From an uncultured Gammaproteobacteria bacterium (GTDB lineage Bacteria; Patescibacteriota; Microgenomatia; Levybacterales; UBA12049), in the NCBI GenBank assembly GCA_964571255.1, contig CAZNAA010000001.1:136134-200133 (forward strand): a stretch of DNA of 64,000 nucleotides, given 5' to 3'. The position numbers were made by a program, and so were the translations under genes. Position 1 is the stretch's first letter. The number at the start of each line of letters is the position of its first letter. Positions 26,369 to 31,562 of the stretch are shown in pieces. Under the pieces are notes generated by a model. It searched no databases. It was not told where the DNA came from and saw nothing but the letters and a program-made list of their open reading frames with translations.

Positions 26369-27070
26369 ATGTCCGCACAAGAGATTGAATTGAGAAGAAA
26401 CAAACAGCGTTTTAAAGCTGTTTCTAAGCCTGCTGGGGAGTTTGAAGTATATGACGTAGATATATTGCCTTTAAACCCAGATGGAACAGTAGATCTCATG
26501 GTACTAGAATCTAGGATAAATCTCTTAGTTAGAACTATAGCCTACCGTAAAGGAGTTGGTGATGAATCTGATGAAGTTATGCAAGAAGTACTCTTGAGAA
26601 TAGATAGGAATTATAAGAAGTATCAAGGAAAAGGACTCCTAGCGTGGGTTAATACGATTACCACAAATATCTGTTTCTCTATACTTAGAAAAAGAAGAAG
26701 ACTTAAGAACAACTTGGGGTTTCAGTATCATAATAGCCTAGATTCTCGAGATATACTTGAAATACCAGAAGTAGTAGCAATGACTAACAGAGAAGACTTA
26801 CAAGAAGAATATTTGTTAAAAGAAAGAGATAAACAGATACGGAGGGTTCTTGCTCTGCTTTCTTTAGAAGATAGAAAATTGTTGGAGCTATATTATTTAC
26901 ACGAAGGAGTAGAATTATCGTATTCCCAAATAGCTGATATGCTCTCGGTATCATATGCTACTGTAAAAAGAAGGATACAAAGAGCTAAAGTTAAAGCTAA
27001 AAAGCTTTTTATTCAACAAGGGTTTTCTTCCATAGGTGAAGTGGATGCCAGTGAACCCTCCCTTCAGTAA
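26369..27070 (+). CDS. RNA polymerase sigma factor, sigma-70 family (ECF-like)
   Basis: Region 2 (EVLLRIDRNYKKY) and region 4 HTH (LSYSQIADMLSVSYATVKRRI). Confidence 0.7.
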   Translation: MSAQEIELRRNKQRFKAVSKPAGEFEVYDVDILPLNPDGTVDLMVLESRINLLVRTIAYRKGVGDESDEVMQEVLLRIDRNYKKYQGKGLLAWVNTITTNICFSILRKRRRLKNNLGFQYHNSLDSRDILEIPEVVAMTNREDLQEEYLLKERDKQIRRVLALLSLEDRKLLELYYLHEGVELSYSQIADMLSVSYATVKRRIQRAKVKAKKLFIQQGFSSIGEVDASEPSLQ

Positions 27071-27938: not shown

Positions 27939-29177
27939 TTATTTGTTAGGAGAAAGCAGGGAGATTACTTCAGATAGTGGAAGTTGTTGTTGTGTTCCTG
28001 ATTGTAAGTTTTTGATAGTTACTATTTCTTTGTTTTTTTCTTCATCTCCAATAATAATGACATAGGGAATTTGCTTCTGATCAGCATACTTCATTTGCTT
28101 ATCAAGTTTTGCCGTATAGTCTTCATAGATATCTGTGTTGATTCCCTTCTCACGGAGTTCTCTAGTAATAGAAAGAGAAGAATCCAGTAGTTCAGGAGAA
28201 AAGACAGTTACTAGAACCTTGGTTGTTGTTCCCGTAAGTTCTGGCCAGAGGTTTAGCTCTTCAATTACATCACAAATACGCTCCATTCCAATGGTTGTTC
28301 CCACTGCTGGAACATCTGGTCCTCCTAAAGACTTAATTAACTTGTCATATCTTCCTCCTCCTGTGATAGAGCCAATCTTAGGCTCAGAAACAATGGTTTC
28401 AAAAATACTGCCAGTATAGTAATCAAGTCCTCGTACCATGGTTGGATCAAATTGGATATTTTTTGCCCCTAACTCTTTGGAAAGAGCCATGACTTGTTTA
28501 AGTGACTCATCTGGTTCAACCATAGAAAGTGCGGTGAAAAGGGAGTCAATTTGTGATTTTTGAATTGATTTTTCAAGGAGTTCTGCTTCCACTTCTTCTC
28601 GAGTTTTCTTATCCAGTTTATCAATAGATTGCAAAACAGTAAGAGATTTCTCCTGAGGGATACCGGATTTTTCAATAAGGCTAAAAAGAATTTGTCGAGA
28701 GTTAATTCTAATCGTAAAACCAGTGAGCTTGAGACGAGTAAGAGATTCAGAAATAACGGCAAGAATCTGTGCATCAGCAAGGGGGGAGGAGGATCCTAAA
28801 ATATCGACATCACACTGAGTAAATTGACGATATCTGCCTTTTTGGGTGTTTTCTGCTCTGTATGATGGTTGAATTTGATATCTTTTGAAAGGTTTTGGAA
28901 GATCTTGATACTGACTCATGACCCGAGCTGTTGGAACGGTGAGATCATAATTGAGTCCTACCTTTCTTCCTCCTGAATCATCAAAAATATACATAAGCTT
29001 TTCTGCTTCTTCACCGTATTTCCCAAGGAGGACATCTGCATACTCAAGTGTTGGAGTTTGGAGGGGCTCAAAGCCATAGAGCTCAAACACTTCCTTAAGA
29101 ATACTCATTACTTTATCTCGAATAAGCATTTGTTTTGGTAGAAAATCTCTAAATCCTTTTAATGTTTGTGCTGGCAT
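27939..29177 (-). CDS. hisS: Histidine--tRNA ligase
   Basis: MPAQTLKGFRDFLP N-terminus and class-II motifs. The start was chosen at the Met preceded by SD TAGGAGTGA, not the upstream in-frame ATG at 29198. Confidence 0.85.
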   Translation of the reverse strand: MPAQTLKGFRDFLPKQMLIRDKVMSILKEVFELYGFEPLQTPTLEYADVLLGKYGEEAEKLMYIFDDSGGRKVGLNYDLTVPTARVMSQYQDLPKPFKRYQIQPSYRAENTQKGRYRQFTQCDVDILGSSSPLADAQILAVISESLTRLKLTGFTIRINSRQILFSLIEKSGIPQEKSLTVLQSIDKLDKKTREEVEAELLEKSIQKSQIDSLFTALSMVEPDESLKQVMALSKELGAKNIQFDPTMVRGLDYYTGSIFETIVSEPKIGSITGGGRYDKLIKSLGGPDVPAVGTTIGMERICDVIEELNLWPELTGTTTKVLVTVFSPELLDSSLSITRELREKGINTDIYEDYTAKLDKQMKYADQKQIPYVIIIGDEEKNKEIVTIKNLQSGTQQQLPLSEVISLLSPNK

Positions 29178-29211
29178 AATCACTCCTATTATACACATCC
29201 TCTAGTGGTAA

Positions 29212-30546
29212 TTAATAGAGGCTTGTACTCCTTCCGTATGGATATAAAATAGGGAGAGGGTTTCTACTGTTACTAGCTTGAAGCATACGACTGCGAATTT
29301 GGAGAGGGAATTCGTTTTGTAATAGTAAAGCCTCAGGAAAAAGAGTACTGAGAATATATCCTTGCTTTGCATATACTTGTGCTTTCAAGTTAGTCATCTC
29401 AACTAATTGTTGCTGGGTGGGGGCAGAGAGTCCATCATAATAACTATTCACACCAAAAAAGTCCCTCATTCTTTCAGCTTCTGAACAAACGTCTTCCTCA
29501 ACAACACCTGTATATGTAAAATGAGATAAATCTACCAGCTTCTCCAACTCACTAATACGATAAATGGAAAGAGCAAGGTCAGAGTATTTTCTTTTCATAT
29601 CTCTTTCAAACTCTTCCTTGTAGGTTTTTTTTCTTTTCTCAATGAGTGATTCATTAAGAGGAGGGAAGCCTATGATAGGAAAGATATACTCTGGTTCATC
29701 ATTGTCTCCAATGATAAGTGAAACCTTGGCAGCTATCCCAACTTGTTTTAATTGGCGTATTAAAGATTGTAGTCTTCCTGCCGTTCCTTCAAAATTATTT
29801 CCTTTAGGATTGGTTAATAAATAGTCTTCAGGTGTATCAGAAGTCAAAATTTTGGCATCTACAGGAGGGCAAGTAAACTGGACAAACTCAAAAACTCCCT
29901 TAGCAACAGCTTTCTCAACCTTTTCTCTCACTTCAGGCGTAAGTGTTCCGGGGATAACAGAATAACTTTCAAATAGAGCGAGAACTTTGGTAACTAAGTT
30001 GGTAGGTAATCGTTCTCCAGTCTCAACGAGTTTTTTAACTGCCCTTTGTTCCTGCTTCCTTTTTACTTCCTCTCTTTTTATAGCAGCTACACTCTCTTTT
30101 GCAGTAAAGACTACTTTTGTATTTAGTATTTGATTAATTCCTACCCGTCCGTTAATTCTGACTCTTGTTGGTTTGCCTTTCGCATTAGCATCAGCTAAGT
30201 GAAATCTTCGTTGATATCTTTGTCCTTCTCCTAAAATAAGAGCAGCTGTTTCTTGATAGTAACGAGAATTTTGCGGTGTTCTAATTTGCCTAACAATTTG
30301 ATCAGCACTTCTTTGGGTATCGACGGTTTTAACTTTAGCCTGGAACCCTCTAGGGAGTTGTACTCCTCCATCTAAAATACAATTCAAAATATCGGTTGGA
30401 GAAATGCCCGTACTTCTAGCTAGTTCTTTTATAGTCATTGGAGGATAAGGCATATCCGATTTCTCCCACTTATTGAAAGTGGAGCGAATACTCCTTTGAA
30501 TAATTTGTGCTATGTCTGTTGTTTTTTCCATAAAAAAACCTCCCAT
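29212..30546 (-). CDS. Hypothetical 444-aa protein, the first gene of the T-box-led operon with hisS
   Basis: Long intact ORF with no family motif recognised. A 14-nt gap separates it from hisS, implying co-transcription. Confidence 0.5.
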   Translation of the reverse strand: MGGFFMEKTTDIAQIIQRSIRSTFNKWEKSDMPYPPMTIKELARSTGISPTDILNCILDGGVQLPRGFQAKVKTVDTQRSADQIVRQIRTPQNSRYYQETAALILGEGQRYQRRFHLADANAKGKPTRVRINGRVGINQILNTKVVFTAKESVAAIKREEVKRKQEQRAVKKLVETGERLPTNLVTKVLALFESYSVIPGTLTPEVREKVEKAVAKGVFEFVQFTCPPVDAKILTSDTPEDYLLTNPKGNNFEGTAGRLQSLIRQLKQVGIAAKVSLIIGDNDEPEYIFPIIGFPPLNESLIEKRKKTYKEEFERDMKRKYSDLALSIYRISELEKLVDLSHFTYTGVVEEDVCSEAERMRDFFGVNSYYDGLSAPTQQQLVEMTNLKAQVYAKQGYILSTLFPEALLLQNEFPLQIRSRMLQASNSRNPLPILYPYGRSTSLY

Positions 30547-30798
30547 TCTTTTCCCACCACAAACGTGTGATGAAAAAGGAACGAAAGGTACAAAAAAAGG
30601 ACCTCCCGCGGTCCCATCCTTTATTTCTTTTTCTATTGCTAGAAAAAGACTCTTAGTGGCGACTCCGCGATTGCGACATCGTCTTTTCCCTTTAACGGTT
30701 GAAAATCCGTAGCGTATTTTGACGCTCAGCTCCTGGATCGTGACTCCAGTCAGATGCTTTATGTCCTATATACTATCGAATTAGTGAGAATTTGTCAA
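30547..30798 (-). promoter_or_regulatory. T-box-like riboswitch leader (putative His-responsive) with sigma70-like promoter
   Basis: Minus-strand promoter TTGACA-N17-TAGTAT. The roughly 215-nt leader contains a GNUGA element (GCUGA), the F-box CCGUUA, and the T-box sequence AAAGGAUGGGACCGCGGGAGG, which overlaps the terminator. The bulge UGGG would pair with the C73 discriminator of tRNA-His. Confidence 0.5.
30591..30615 (-). terminator. Intrinsic terminator inside the leader (attenuator)
   Basis: Minus-strand hairpin GGACC-GCGGGA-GGUCC followed by UUUUUUU (plus-strand A-run 30592-30598). Confidence 0.55.
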
Positions 30799-30800
30799 AT

Positions 30801-31562
30801 TTAGCGAAGAGGAGTGAGTTTTTTTCCACTCCCTGTGGAGACGACGACTTCTTCATCTTCCTTGAGTTGAGCTGAAGGAATAATGACTTTTGGGTTTTTG
30901 GGAAGATCAGGAAAAAGGATAATACGAGTTGCTACCATTCGGAATTTTTCCTTCTTATCAAGAAAACCAGTCACAAATACTCTTTGTCCAACTTCAATTC
31001 TGCTAAACCCTGCTTTTTCCATTTCCGTTTTTTTGGTATAGACACTCGTTTTAGTCACATTTTCTACATCAACAGTTGTTTGTGATCCATCTTCTGATGC
31101 GACTTTGAAGGTAAACTCTTTGGCATCAAATGAGCTTACTTGTCCTGAAAGGGTAGTGGGGAATGTATCAACAGCAATAAATCTAGCTGTAATTCGTCTG
31201 GATTGTTTGTTATAAAGCCCTAACACACTGATTTTTGTTCCTTTGGTCAAGTCGGAAATCCCAAATGTCCCACTGGCTGAGGGGGAGGAAAACTTGGTAA
31301 TCTCGTCAACATCCACAAACCTAGTATTTTTATTAATATCCTCCATTGTAATCTGGGTAGAGGAAGTACTCTGAACTATTCCCACAATACCTCTTTTATC
31401 TACTAGTTTAAGTTGAGCTACTCGGGAAGCAATGCGATCTTTTAAATCAGTAATTTGATCAACCATGGTTGGTTGAGAACTAGTAGGAGAAGGAGTAGCT
31501 GTTTGAGCAACTGCTGGGCTAACGAGAAGAAAGAACAGGATAAAAGGAAGAAGGTAGTTCAT
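30801..31562 (-). CDS. Hypothetical secreted protein
   Basis: Signal peptide MNYLLPFILFFLLVSPAVAQ. Confidence 0.45.
   Translation of the reverse strand: MNYLLPFILFFLLVSPAVAQTATPSPTSSQPTMVDQITDLKDRIASRVAQLKLVDKRGIVGIVQSTSSTQITMEDINKNTRFVDVDEITKFSSPSASGTFGISDLTKGTKISVLGLYNKQSRRITARFIAVDTFPTTLSGQVSSFDAKEFTFKVASEDGSQTTVDVENVTKTSVYTKKTEMEKAGFSRIEVGQRVFVTGFLDKKEKFRMVATRIILFPDLPKNPKVIIPSAQLKEDEEVVVSTGSGKKLTPLR

Follow-up and report, generated by a model that had tools for sequence, protein, structure and literature searches.

A putative histidine-specific T-box riboswitch with an ultrashort Stem I in Patescibacteria

T-boxes are textbook regulators of Gram-positive bacteria. Those that act on transcription are held to depend on a long Stem I for fast capture of the tRNA, and the ultrashort forms are held to be translational (PMC7583486), as in the 'class II' T-boxes of Actinobacteria exemplified by Mycobacterium ileS (Sherwood et al., 2015, as reviewed in PMC7583486). 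The T-box bulge is presumed to pair with the NCCA end of the tRNA before the 3' strands of the two antiterminator helices, A1 and A2, anneal (PMC7583486). Additions to the decision domain have also been described: stem Sa of staphylococcal glyS is an insertion in the terminator/antiterminator domain (PMC4574755, PMC9177973). In the literature searched we found nothing that links T-boxes to Patescibacteria, the Candidate Phyla Radiation (CPR), Parcubacteria or Saccharibacteria. Here we analyze a 64,000-nucleotide (nt) stretch of contig CAZNAA010000001.1 (hereafter the window), which GTDB places in the Patescibacteriota. An initial annotation had proposed a T-box of histidine specificity in front of an operon encoding an uncharacterized protein and hisS. 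The leader in question is a 269-nt minus-strand spacer that separates the first gene of the hisS operon from an upstream gene for a 253-amino-acid (aa) protein (stop at 30801). Our analysis supports the proposal, with corrections: with a probability of about 85%, we consider the leader to be a T-box riboswitch specific for histidine and a member of a streamlined class found widely among Patescibacteria/CPR.

Fold of the leader and its match to the T-box family

The Rfam T-box model RF00230 matches positions 30763-30574 of the minus strand across its whole length with 42.5 bits, at E = 3.4e-8 in a search of 451 nt and E = 4.8e-6 in a search of the entire window. The match is significant by E-value and lies below the Rfam gathering score of 93 bits; E-value reporting is required to see it, and the gathering threshold misses it. 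The alignment assigns a kink-turn (K-turn)-type base (AGC...UGA / GA...GCU), Stem I, Stem II, Stem IIA with the F-box, and Stem III, and then an antiterminator composed of AGGA, the bulge UGGGACC, GCGGG ... UUCGU and UCCU. The T-box sequence AAGGAUGGGACCGCG (30621-30607), with its UGGNACC bulge, is aligned from model position 196. Every sequence element named in the initial annotation was recovered in place on the minus strand, including a longer version of the T-box sequence, AAAGGAUGGGACCGCGGGAGG (30622-30602).

Stem I occupies only 30758-30728, and 75 Stem I positions of the Rfam model are deleted in the alignment. Its base fits a K-turn in sequence (AGC, a 3-nt bulge, then UGA ... GA and GCU): AGC (30758-30756) pairs with GCU (30730-30728) to form the C-stem, which covaries among related leaders (AGC/GCU versus UCC/GGA), and UGA and GA provide tandem G.A pairs. 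Above it, CUGGA (30749-30745) and UCCAG (30737-30733) form a helix of 5 base pairs (bp) closed by the 7-nt specifier loop GUCACGA (30744-30738), which carries the histidine codon CAC (30742-30740). This is the hairpin that had been put forward as an ultrashort Stem I displaying its specifier in the terminal loop, and it stands as described. The GCUGA sequence that had been taken for the GNUGA element is present (30729-30725), but it belongs to the K-turn helix, whose 3' strand it forms on the way into Stem II, and not to a Stem I distal loop.

Stem II (30726-30711) is the hairpin AGCGU-CAAAAU-ACGCU with a conserved A-rich loop. It is followed at 30710-30684 by Stem IIA, in which ACGG (30710-30707) pairs with CCGU (30698-30695) of the F-box CCGUUA (30698-30693), and by the IIB pseudoknot between UUUUC (30705-30701) and GAAAA (30688-30684). 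A long hairpin without counterpart in the Rfam model is inserted next, GACGAUGUCGC-AAUC-GCGGAGUCGCC (30683-30658), with a conserved internal GAUGU/GGAGU that includes an invariant G.A mismatch. Stem II, the pseudoknot and this extra hairpin together back the CAC-bearing loop of Stem I. Stem III, UCUUUUUCUA-GCAA-UAGAAAAAGA (30649-30626), completes the 5' domain.

The decision domain contains an antiterminator and two terminator-like hairpins, which we term T1 and T2. The antiterminator (30621-30576; computed energy -11.2 kcal/mol) is formed by A1, in which AAGGA (30621-30617) pairs with UCCUU (30580-30576), and by A2, in which GCGGGAGG (30609-30602) pairs with CCUUUCGU (30588-30581) around a 13-nt loop that includes a U7 run. 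Between the two helices lies the bulge UGGGACC (30616-30610), complementary to the C73-C-C-A 3' end of tRNA-His; the variable base is G, matching C73 as had been proposed. T2, CCUUUCGUUCCUUUUUCAUCACA-CGUU-UGUGGUGGGAAAAGAAUGGGAGG followed by U7 (30538-30532), spans 30588-30532 and has the form of a canonical terminator. Its hairpin (30588-30539; -29.0 kcal/mol) has 23 bp with one mismatch, and AUG 30531 comes directly after the U7. The 5' arm of T2 (30588-30566) contains the 3' strands of both A2 and A1, with CCUUUCGUUCCUU common to T2 and the antiterminator, so that the two structures are mutually exclusive through a shared strand. The 3' arm carries a Shine-Dalgarno sequence, GGGAGG, 7 nt before AUG 30531, and T2 would also act as a Shine-Dalgarno sequestrator.

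T1, GGGACC-GCGGGA-GGUCCU followed by U7 (30598-30592), spans 30615-30592 with a computed energy of -10.2 kcal/mol, and T1 and T2 together reach -39.2 kcal/mol. The initial annotation had taken the core of this hairpin, GGACC-GCGGGA-GGUCC with its U7 (30614-30592, 45 nt before ATG 30546), for the terminator of the leader. The hairpin and its U-run are there, but they do not form a canonical T-box terminator: T1 lies within the A2 loop, upstream of the antiterminator 3' strand, and the tRNA-acceptor-binding bulge doubles as its 5' arm. The main terminator, T2, had been overlooked. An antiterminator able to hold the terminator strand does exist, as the Rfam alignment, covariation and the computed energy agree.

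A family of leaders linked to histidine genes and tRNA-His

The protein encoded by the first gene led to two further contigs. A close relative with the same synteny (L001) has a leader identical to that of the window at 256 of 269 nt. In a distant relative (L002; 34% protein identity), the same leader is followed by tRNA-His(GUG) and then by the homologous protein. We scanned one genome per species with the pattern GAGTCACGA-N100-130-GGRTGGGACCGCG, for which we estimate about four chance matches. The scan returned 81 loci, 79 of which are genuine leaders that keep the F-box and T-box blocks. A covariance model (R1) recovers all 79 at 95-167 bits and rejects the other two, L006 and L081, as chance matches. 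By record title, nearly all hosts are metagenome-assembled genomes (MAGs) of Patescibacteria/CPR, with Gottesman-, Davies-, Woese-, Levy-, Blackburn- and Amesbacteria, Microgenomates, Saccharimonadia, Paceibacterota and 'Patescibacteria group' among the names; about 30 binchicken MAGs are titled 'uncultured Gammaproteobacteria/Pseudomonadales', a taxonomy given by the title only.

Covariation was analyzed in the 55 leaders without large insertions. The ON-state model, comprising the K-turn stem, Stems I, II and IIA, the IIB pseudoknot, the extra 11-pair hairpin, Stem III, A1 and A2, is 87% paired, and 36 of its 55 pairs show two-sided changes. Its covariation score is 0.367, compared with 0.133 for shuffled alignments (reached by 0/500) and no more than 0.17 with slid partners. 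The OFF state (T1 + T2) is 90% paired and scores 0.345 versus 0.167 (0/500). These shuffle counts are not probabilities, because the leaders share ancestry and the window itself supplied the structure; double changes in individual helices and the slid controls are the stronger evidence.

Helix by helix, the two parts of Stem I (helices 1 and 2) are 89% and 99% paired, and pairs 23/39 and 24/38 show two-sided changes in 29/55 and 24/55 sequences. Stem II (helix 3) is 94.5% paired with two-sided changes in all five pairs. In the Stem IIA/B region (helices 4-6), three central pairs of the pseudoknot change on both sides in 15, 6 and 19 sequences, with 92.7% pairing. The extra hairpin (helix 7) shows such changes in 8 of its 11 pairs and varies in apical length, and Stem III (helix 8) shows them in 8/8 pairs, in an alignment that is poor near the loop. 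A1 and A2 (helices 10-12) are 97-99% paired, with two-sided changes of A2 in 5, 4 and 3 sequences plus compensated insertions and deletions. In T2, 12 of 22 pairs change on both sides and 89.9% are paired, compared with at most 52% in the slid controls; the two differences of L001 that fall within T2 retain pairing. When all 82 leaders are considered, Stem I invariably consists of 5 bp and a 7-nt terminal loop, and a U5-U8 run follows T2 in nearly every case.

The genes behind the 82 leaders were collected as chains of open reading frames (ORFs) on the same strand, clustered by BLAST and named through Pfam matches of representatives. hisS is found in 42 loci and hisG and/or hisD of the his operon in 32 (HisG in 30, HisD in 17). 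HisC-type aminotransferases account for 17 ORFs in 14 loci, HisB occurs in 6 loci and GNAT in 4. The specifier CAC fits these genes and tRNA-His; the evidence for this is gene content, since CAC was fixed in the search pattern.

A tRNA-His(GUG) gene lies between the leader and the downstream genes in at least 31 of 80 loci (e.g., L002 1364-1435, L005, L029, L044, L050, L056, L058, L064 and L077). All 30 leader-adjacent tRNA-His(GUG) genes found by ARAGORN encode G-1 and C73, the complement of the bulge G; the program overlooked a few further genes that are visible by eye (L007, L080). In nine loci, G-1 directly abuts the U-run of T2. The leader may thus control synthesis of its own ligand, tRNA-His. 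We found no prior report in the literature of a T-box directly upstream of the tRNA gene that it senses.

Model R1 also recovers paralogous leaders that share the short-Stem-I build and carry other combinations of specifier and bulge. In L054 (6320-6560, plus strand), the loop GUCGCGA (CGC, arginine) is combined with the bulge UGGC before a 339-aa ORF. In L067 (4495-4700, plus strand), the bulge is UGGU, the leader lies upstream of argH-argG, and the antiterminator is compact and without T1. In L014 (5440-5740, minus strand), the loop UUUCCCG occurs with the bulge UGGU before a 371-aa ORF. The ORF of L054 (6561-7580) has no Pfam match and aligns weakly with the family of the 439-aa protein (hhalign probability 21%, E = 1e-3), its motifs GDDD, FAFQG and ANTYP falling on GDxDE, YAxQG and LQxExP of the family; this ORF may represent a distant paralogue whose T-box has another specificity.

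Several observations weigh against assigning the leader to the T-box family. At the gathering score, RF00230 reports no T-box for the window, and all 18 related loci tested stay below that score (L001 scores 38 bits). The window has no long Stem I with internal specifier loop, AG bulge, distal loop and elbow platform, and no recognizable AGUA/GAA S-turn in Stem II, where the GAA/AGUA positions of the model are deleted in the alignment. The invariance of CAC and UGGG in the histidine set is no evidence, because both were fixed in the search pattern. C73 of tRNA-His normally pairs with G-1, and pairing with the bulge G needs that pair opened.

The low score itself has an identifiable source: just 6 nt stand in for 75 Stem I positions of the model, the S-turn positions of Stem II are missing, and Stem III is preceded by an insertion of about 30 nt. 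Since 0/18 loci reach the gathering score, standard annotation misses this whole class of leaders. The A-rich loop CAAAAU of Stem II and the G.A internal loop of the extra hairpin might substitute for the S-turn. One could still suppose that the leader senses no tRNA and belongs to some other type of conserved leader or small RNA, for instance a protein- or metabolite-binding attenuator, with no more than a resemblance to a T-box; the score, the absent Stem I platform and a degenerate bulge in the leader of one relative (L087, discussed below) would fit this. However, the model is matched over its full length, including F-box, 14-nt T-box sequence and bulge; specifier and bulge base fit the adjacent tRNA-His genes and the histidine regulon; and the paralogues switch specifier, bulge base and target genes together. 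We regard such a mimic as most improbable. On the sequence data, the leader falls short of RF00230 membership in its curated score and in its Stem I, which has no platform; the features that define T-box function are all present.

A nested early hairpin and a possible two-step switch

The structures above suggest how the leader would operate. Uncharged tRNA-His, held at both sites, would stabilize the antiterminator (A1 AAGGA/UCCUU and A2), which would withhold CCUUUCGUUCCUU from T2. Polymerase would then clear U7, the Shine-Dalgarno sequence would be freed, and the 439-aa protein, hisS and perhaps a downstream EamA-family transporter would be expressed. When tRNA-His is charged, T2 would form, stopping transcription and sequestering the Shine-Dalgarno sequence as well.

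Whether the output is instead purely translational, as in actinobacterial ileS, bears directly on this scheme. In that case the leader would act through Shine-Dalgarno sequestration and the U-runs would be incidental. An ultrashort Stem I is known from translational T-boxes (PMC7583486), and the T2 3' arm of the window does place GGGAGG just ahead of the start codon. But 5-8 U follow T2 in almost all leaders, and where tRNA-His comes next, in about 31 loci, there is no Shine-Dalgarno sequence or start codon to control. GGGAGG is conserved at these tRNA-His loci too, as the pairing partner of CCUCUCG. In the nine loci with G-1 right after the U-run, there is no room for a separate promoter outside the leader, and a translational mechanism is therefore inapplicable there. 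We consider a purely translational switch very unlikely. The class is CPR-wide and apparently transcriptional, with a nested early terminator-like element and often a direct link to the cognate tRNA gene.

A T1-type hairpin (at least 4 bp, ending at most 2 nt from at least 5 U) is found in 75 of 82 leaders, with a median of -8.1 kcal/mol. Its registers differ (GGGACC or GACCGC/GCGGUC), and variable 3' arms (GGUCC, GCGGUC, GGUCUC) each restore pairing with the bulge. The U-run stays beside the hairpin although 100-136 nt are inserted downstream in L017, L027, L028 and L033, and in L046 the stem is kept although its loop has gained 26 nt. Only the 5' arm of T1 was fixed by the search pattern, which left the 3' arm and U-run free; T1 shows no two-sided changes for this reason. 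The conserved hairpin and U-run, the restored pairing and the tolerance of insertions indicate that T1 is under selection; its function is what we infer. That T1 is simply part of the A2 helix is ruled out, as A2 (GCGGGAGG/CCUCUCGU) has compensatory changes of its own.

Large, partly shared insertions occur in the antiterminator loop, always past the T1 U-run: about 100-136 nt in L017, L027 and L033, about 25 nt in L009, L010, L016 and L065, and others in L032, L039 and L049. They include GAUGAGACAACGAUCUCAUCAUCCUCC...GGAGGAU and hairpins of the AUGCUCAUGAGUAUGAGCG type.

During transcription, T1 (GGGACC/GGUCCU + U7) would form first and cover the tRNA-binding bulge. It could serve as an early checkpoint, either as a first terminator that forms only when no uncharged 3' end occupies UGGG or as a hairpin-stabilized pause that buys time, two roles that are not exclusive. 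T1 would be prevented or resolved when uncharged NCCA holds UGGG and the antiterminator 3' strand invades through the T1 loop, the 6 nt of which (GCGGGA) could act as a toehold for the 3' strand of A2. The Stem I platform normally makes tRNA capture faster in T-boxes that act on transcription, and such a checkpoint could make up for its absence here. We offer, tentatively, a platform-less, two-step class of transcriptional T-box peculiar to the CPR, with T1 first and the antiterminator/terminator decision second, which in many genomes would govern its own ligand tRNA-His, hisS, the his operon and a new TyrRS/cyclodipeptide synthase (CDPS)-like enzyme family acting on histidine or His-tRNA. If this is true, the circuit would be a feed-forward loop in which uncharged tRNA-His induces tRNA-His.

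One consideration counts against a regulated T1. Efficient termination at T1 would preclude synthesis of the antiterminator 3' strand, and regulation therefore requires a 4-bp tRNA contact, or polymerase, to overcome T1. In an ordinary single-terminator T-box, only the choice between the antiterminator and T2 would matter, and T1 would be a by-product that stabilizes the OFF fold or the large A2 loop. The antiterminator and T2 by themselves make a complete canonical switch, T1 is missing from seven leaders (L036, L039, L040, L057, L064, L071 and L073), and the arginine leader of L067 manages with its compact antiterminator. A mere by-product sits less well with a hairpin that abuts its U-run in so many leaders and is kept through insertions and changes of its 3' arm. 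Moreover, two other CPR T-box types bear a hairpin and U-run at a different place upstream of the antiterminator 3' strand: in L054 and L014, a hairpin with U5-U8 lies inside Stem III. We judge the single-terminator explanation rather unlikely.

Genes behind the leader, and comparison with known systems

A promoter-like site on the minus strand (30798-30770) starts 2 nt past the stop codon of the upstream gene and ahead of the Rfam match, which begins at 30763. It consists of TTGACA (30798-30793), a 17-nt spacer and TAGTAT (30775-30770); it matches the consensus at 10/12 positions and is proposed from that match alone. No His-rich leader peptide ORF is visible on reading the leader, in which no systematic scan for short ORFs was made, and an attenuator of the leader-peptide type was set aside on this basis.

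The first gene of the operon (30531-29212, minus strand) belongs to an uncharacterized family. The mechanically called ORF has 444 aa from ATG 30546; the start codon is most likely AUG 30531 (MEKTT...), giving 439 aa, because both homologues begin there (MEKT.../MNKE...) and ATG 30546 sits inside the 3' arm of T2. hisS (29198-27939, minus strand) starts 13 nt after the stop of this gene and encodes histidyl-tRNA synthetase (Pfam tRNA-synt_His, 3.7e-44; HGTP_anticodon, 2.7e-18). An EamA-family transporter gene (27920-27009, minus strand; Pfam EamA, 1.8e-41) follows 18 nt after hisS and is possibly the third gene of the transcription unit; an EamA homologue (cluster C3) lies downstream of hisS in 25 leader loci.

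The T2 U-run is followed by RUUGG and an A-run (in the window, 30540-30520, minus strand: UUUUUUU-AUGG-AAAAAA), and the first codons of the 439-aa gene overlap this conserved leader element. The element is kept even where tRNA-His is the next gene (L002 1322-1345, L020, L023, L035, L037, L069, L080), and it could pair with the U-run.

The 439-aa protein has no match in Pfam, NCBIfam or PDB-sequence searches. A word-indexed search with the 444-aa version returned only three clusters, and an exhaustive profile search was needed to see the family: 147 clusters, 100 of them at E <= 1e-10. Its members combine an N-terminal helical, helix-turn-helix-like module (residues 1-170) with a C-terminal module of about 260 aa, the latter also found on its own. 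A first structure model from a 3-sequence alignment (predicted local distance difference test, pLDDT, 68) was superseded by an AlphaFold model from a 72-sequence alignment, with a pLDDT of 85 overall and 92-98 in the C-terminal domain. The predicted C-terminal domain has a class-I aminoacyl-tRNA synthetase-like Rossmann fold resembling PvcA, TyrRS and CDPS, and Foldseek agrees. Sequence identity to the TyrRS catalytic domain, cyclodipeptide synthases and PvcA/IsnA isonitrile synthases is 7-11%, and no HIGH or KMSKS motif is readable in the protein. The family stands apart from CDPS, TyrRS and PvcA/IsnA by motifs of its own (FTCPxxDAK, in which the cysteine is invariant, GDxDE, YAxQG and LLQxExP) and by the extra N-terminal module. 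Cys226, at the end of the first strand, and Pro414 are invariant; Cys226 as a catalytic candidate is a lead only. The fold and the genomic company of hisS, tRNA-His and a histidine T-box suggest, again as a lead, an enzyme that acts on histidine or His-tRNA.

Linkage of this family to the T-box, which had been suggested as a question for its homologues, holds in part. Family members lie downstream of the leader in seven loci, plus L087. P0004 and P0006, which are more distant homologues, follow a small gene of the Trp-repressor family (PF01371; L085 3346-3678 and L086 2756-3031) and have no T-box, which suggests that the same enzyme family is under protein-based regulation elsewhere. In L087 (2950-3150), a histidine-type leader with the Stem I loop AGUCACG stands before tRNA-His and a homologue that consists of the C-terminal domain only (P0008). 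This leader has T1-like and T2-like hairpins with U-runs, and its UGGNACC bulge is not recognizable; the variant may be degenerate or divergent. When the window is compared with L001, neighboring proteins are 92-98% identical, whereas the 439-aa protein is just 61.5% identical and a sigma-70-like 233-aa ORF (26369-27070) just 34%; on this comparison they are two hypervariable genes within an otherwise conserved block.

Other genes also stand first behind histidine leaders. An M20 peptidase does so in six loci (L013, L015, L049, L051, L056, L077), an M15 dipeptidase-like gene in four (L026, L052, L067, L082), and weakly phosphoribosyltransferase-like genes in L012, L039 and L053; these are possibly histidine-salvage functions. 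An uncharacterized family of 234-273 aa (cluster C8) is the first gene in 7-10 loci (e.g., L078), mostly before hisS. Its proteins have no Pfam match even at E <= 1, and hmmsearch found no relation to the 439-aa family, of which they had been considered as homologues. Their motif GGEFCGNSTRC presumably resembles those of DapF-type epimerases/racemases.

These leaders form a well-conserved CPR family below the Rfam threshold, so current annotation understates the distribution of T-boxes. That an ultrashort Stem I occurs together with intrinsic terminators contradicts the idea of a long Stem I platform as indispensable to transcriptional T-boxes, and the conserved early hairpin with its U-run offers a concrete idea of how the missing platform is compensated. 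T-box control of the gene for the sensed tRNA would, if true, be a new regulatory circuit. The histidine regulon also flags several uncharacterized CPR genes, including the TyrRS/CDPS-like family, as functional leads in organisms that are hard to culture.

With canonical transcriptional T-boxes (RF00230; Bacillus tyrS, glyQS, hisS), the CPR leader shares a Stem I base that, by sequence, would form a K-turn, a purine after the specifier codon, the F-box with the IIA/B pseudoknot, Stem III, the 14-nt T-box sequence with its 7-nt bulge UGGNACC, one strand common to antiterminator and intrinsic terminator, and targets in aminoacyl-tRNA synthetase or amino-acid biosynthesis genes. It differs from them in its 5-bp Stem I, with the specifier in the terminal loop and without AG bulge, distal loop or elbow-binding platform, in the lack of a recognizable Stem II S-turn, and in the extra conserved hairpin between pseudoknot and Stem III. 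Further differences are the large A2 loop, which holds T1 and a U-run and in which T1 pairs with the bulge, the CPR hosts, the tRNA gene that is often first downstream, and an Rfam score under half the gathering score.

The actinobacterial ileS T-boxes have in common with the CPR leader a short Stem I whose terminal loop carries the specifier, no elbow platform, the same discriminator bulge and reliance on the Stem II/pseudoknot region; the alternative helix of the window also covers the Shine-Dalgarno sequence. In contrast to ileS, the alternative helix of the CPR leader is a long hairpin with a U-run, often before a tRNA gene, and its output must therefore be transcriptional; the nested T1, the extra hairpin and the phylum differ as well. 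The closest parallels to T1 are stem Sa of glyS and tandem T-boxes, which likewise are lineage-specific additions in the decision domain and give more than one termination opportunity per leader. Unlike these, T1 is neither a second complete T-box nor a neutral insertion, and its 5' arm is the very bulge that binds the tRNA acceptor end.

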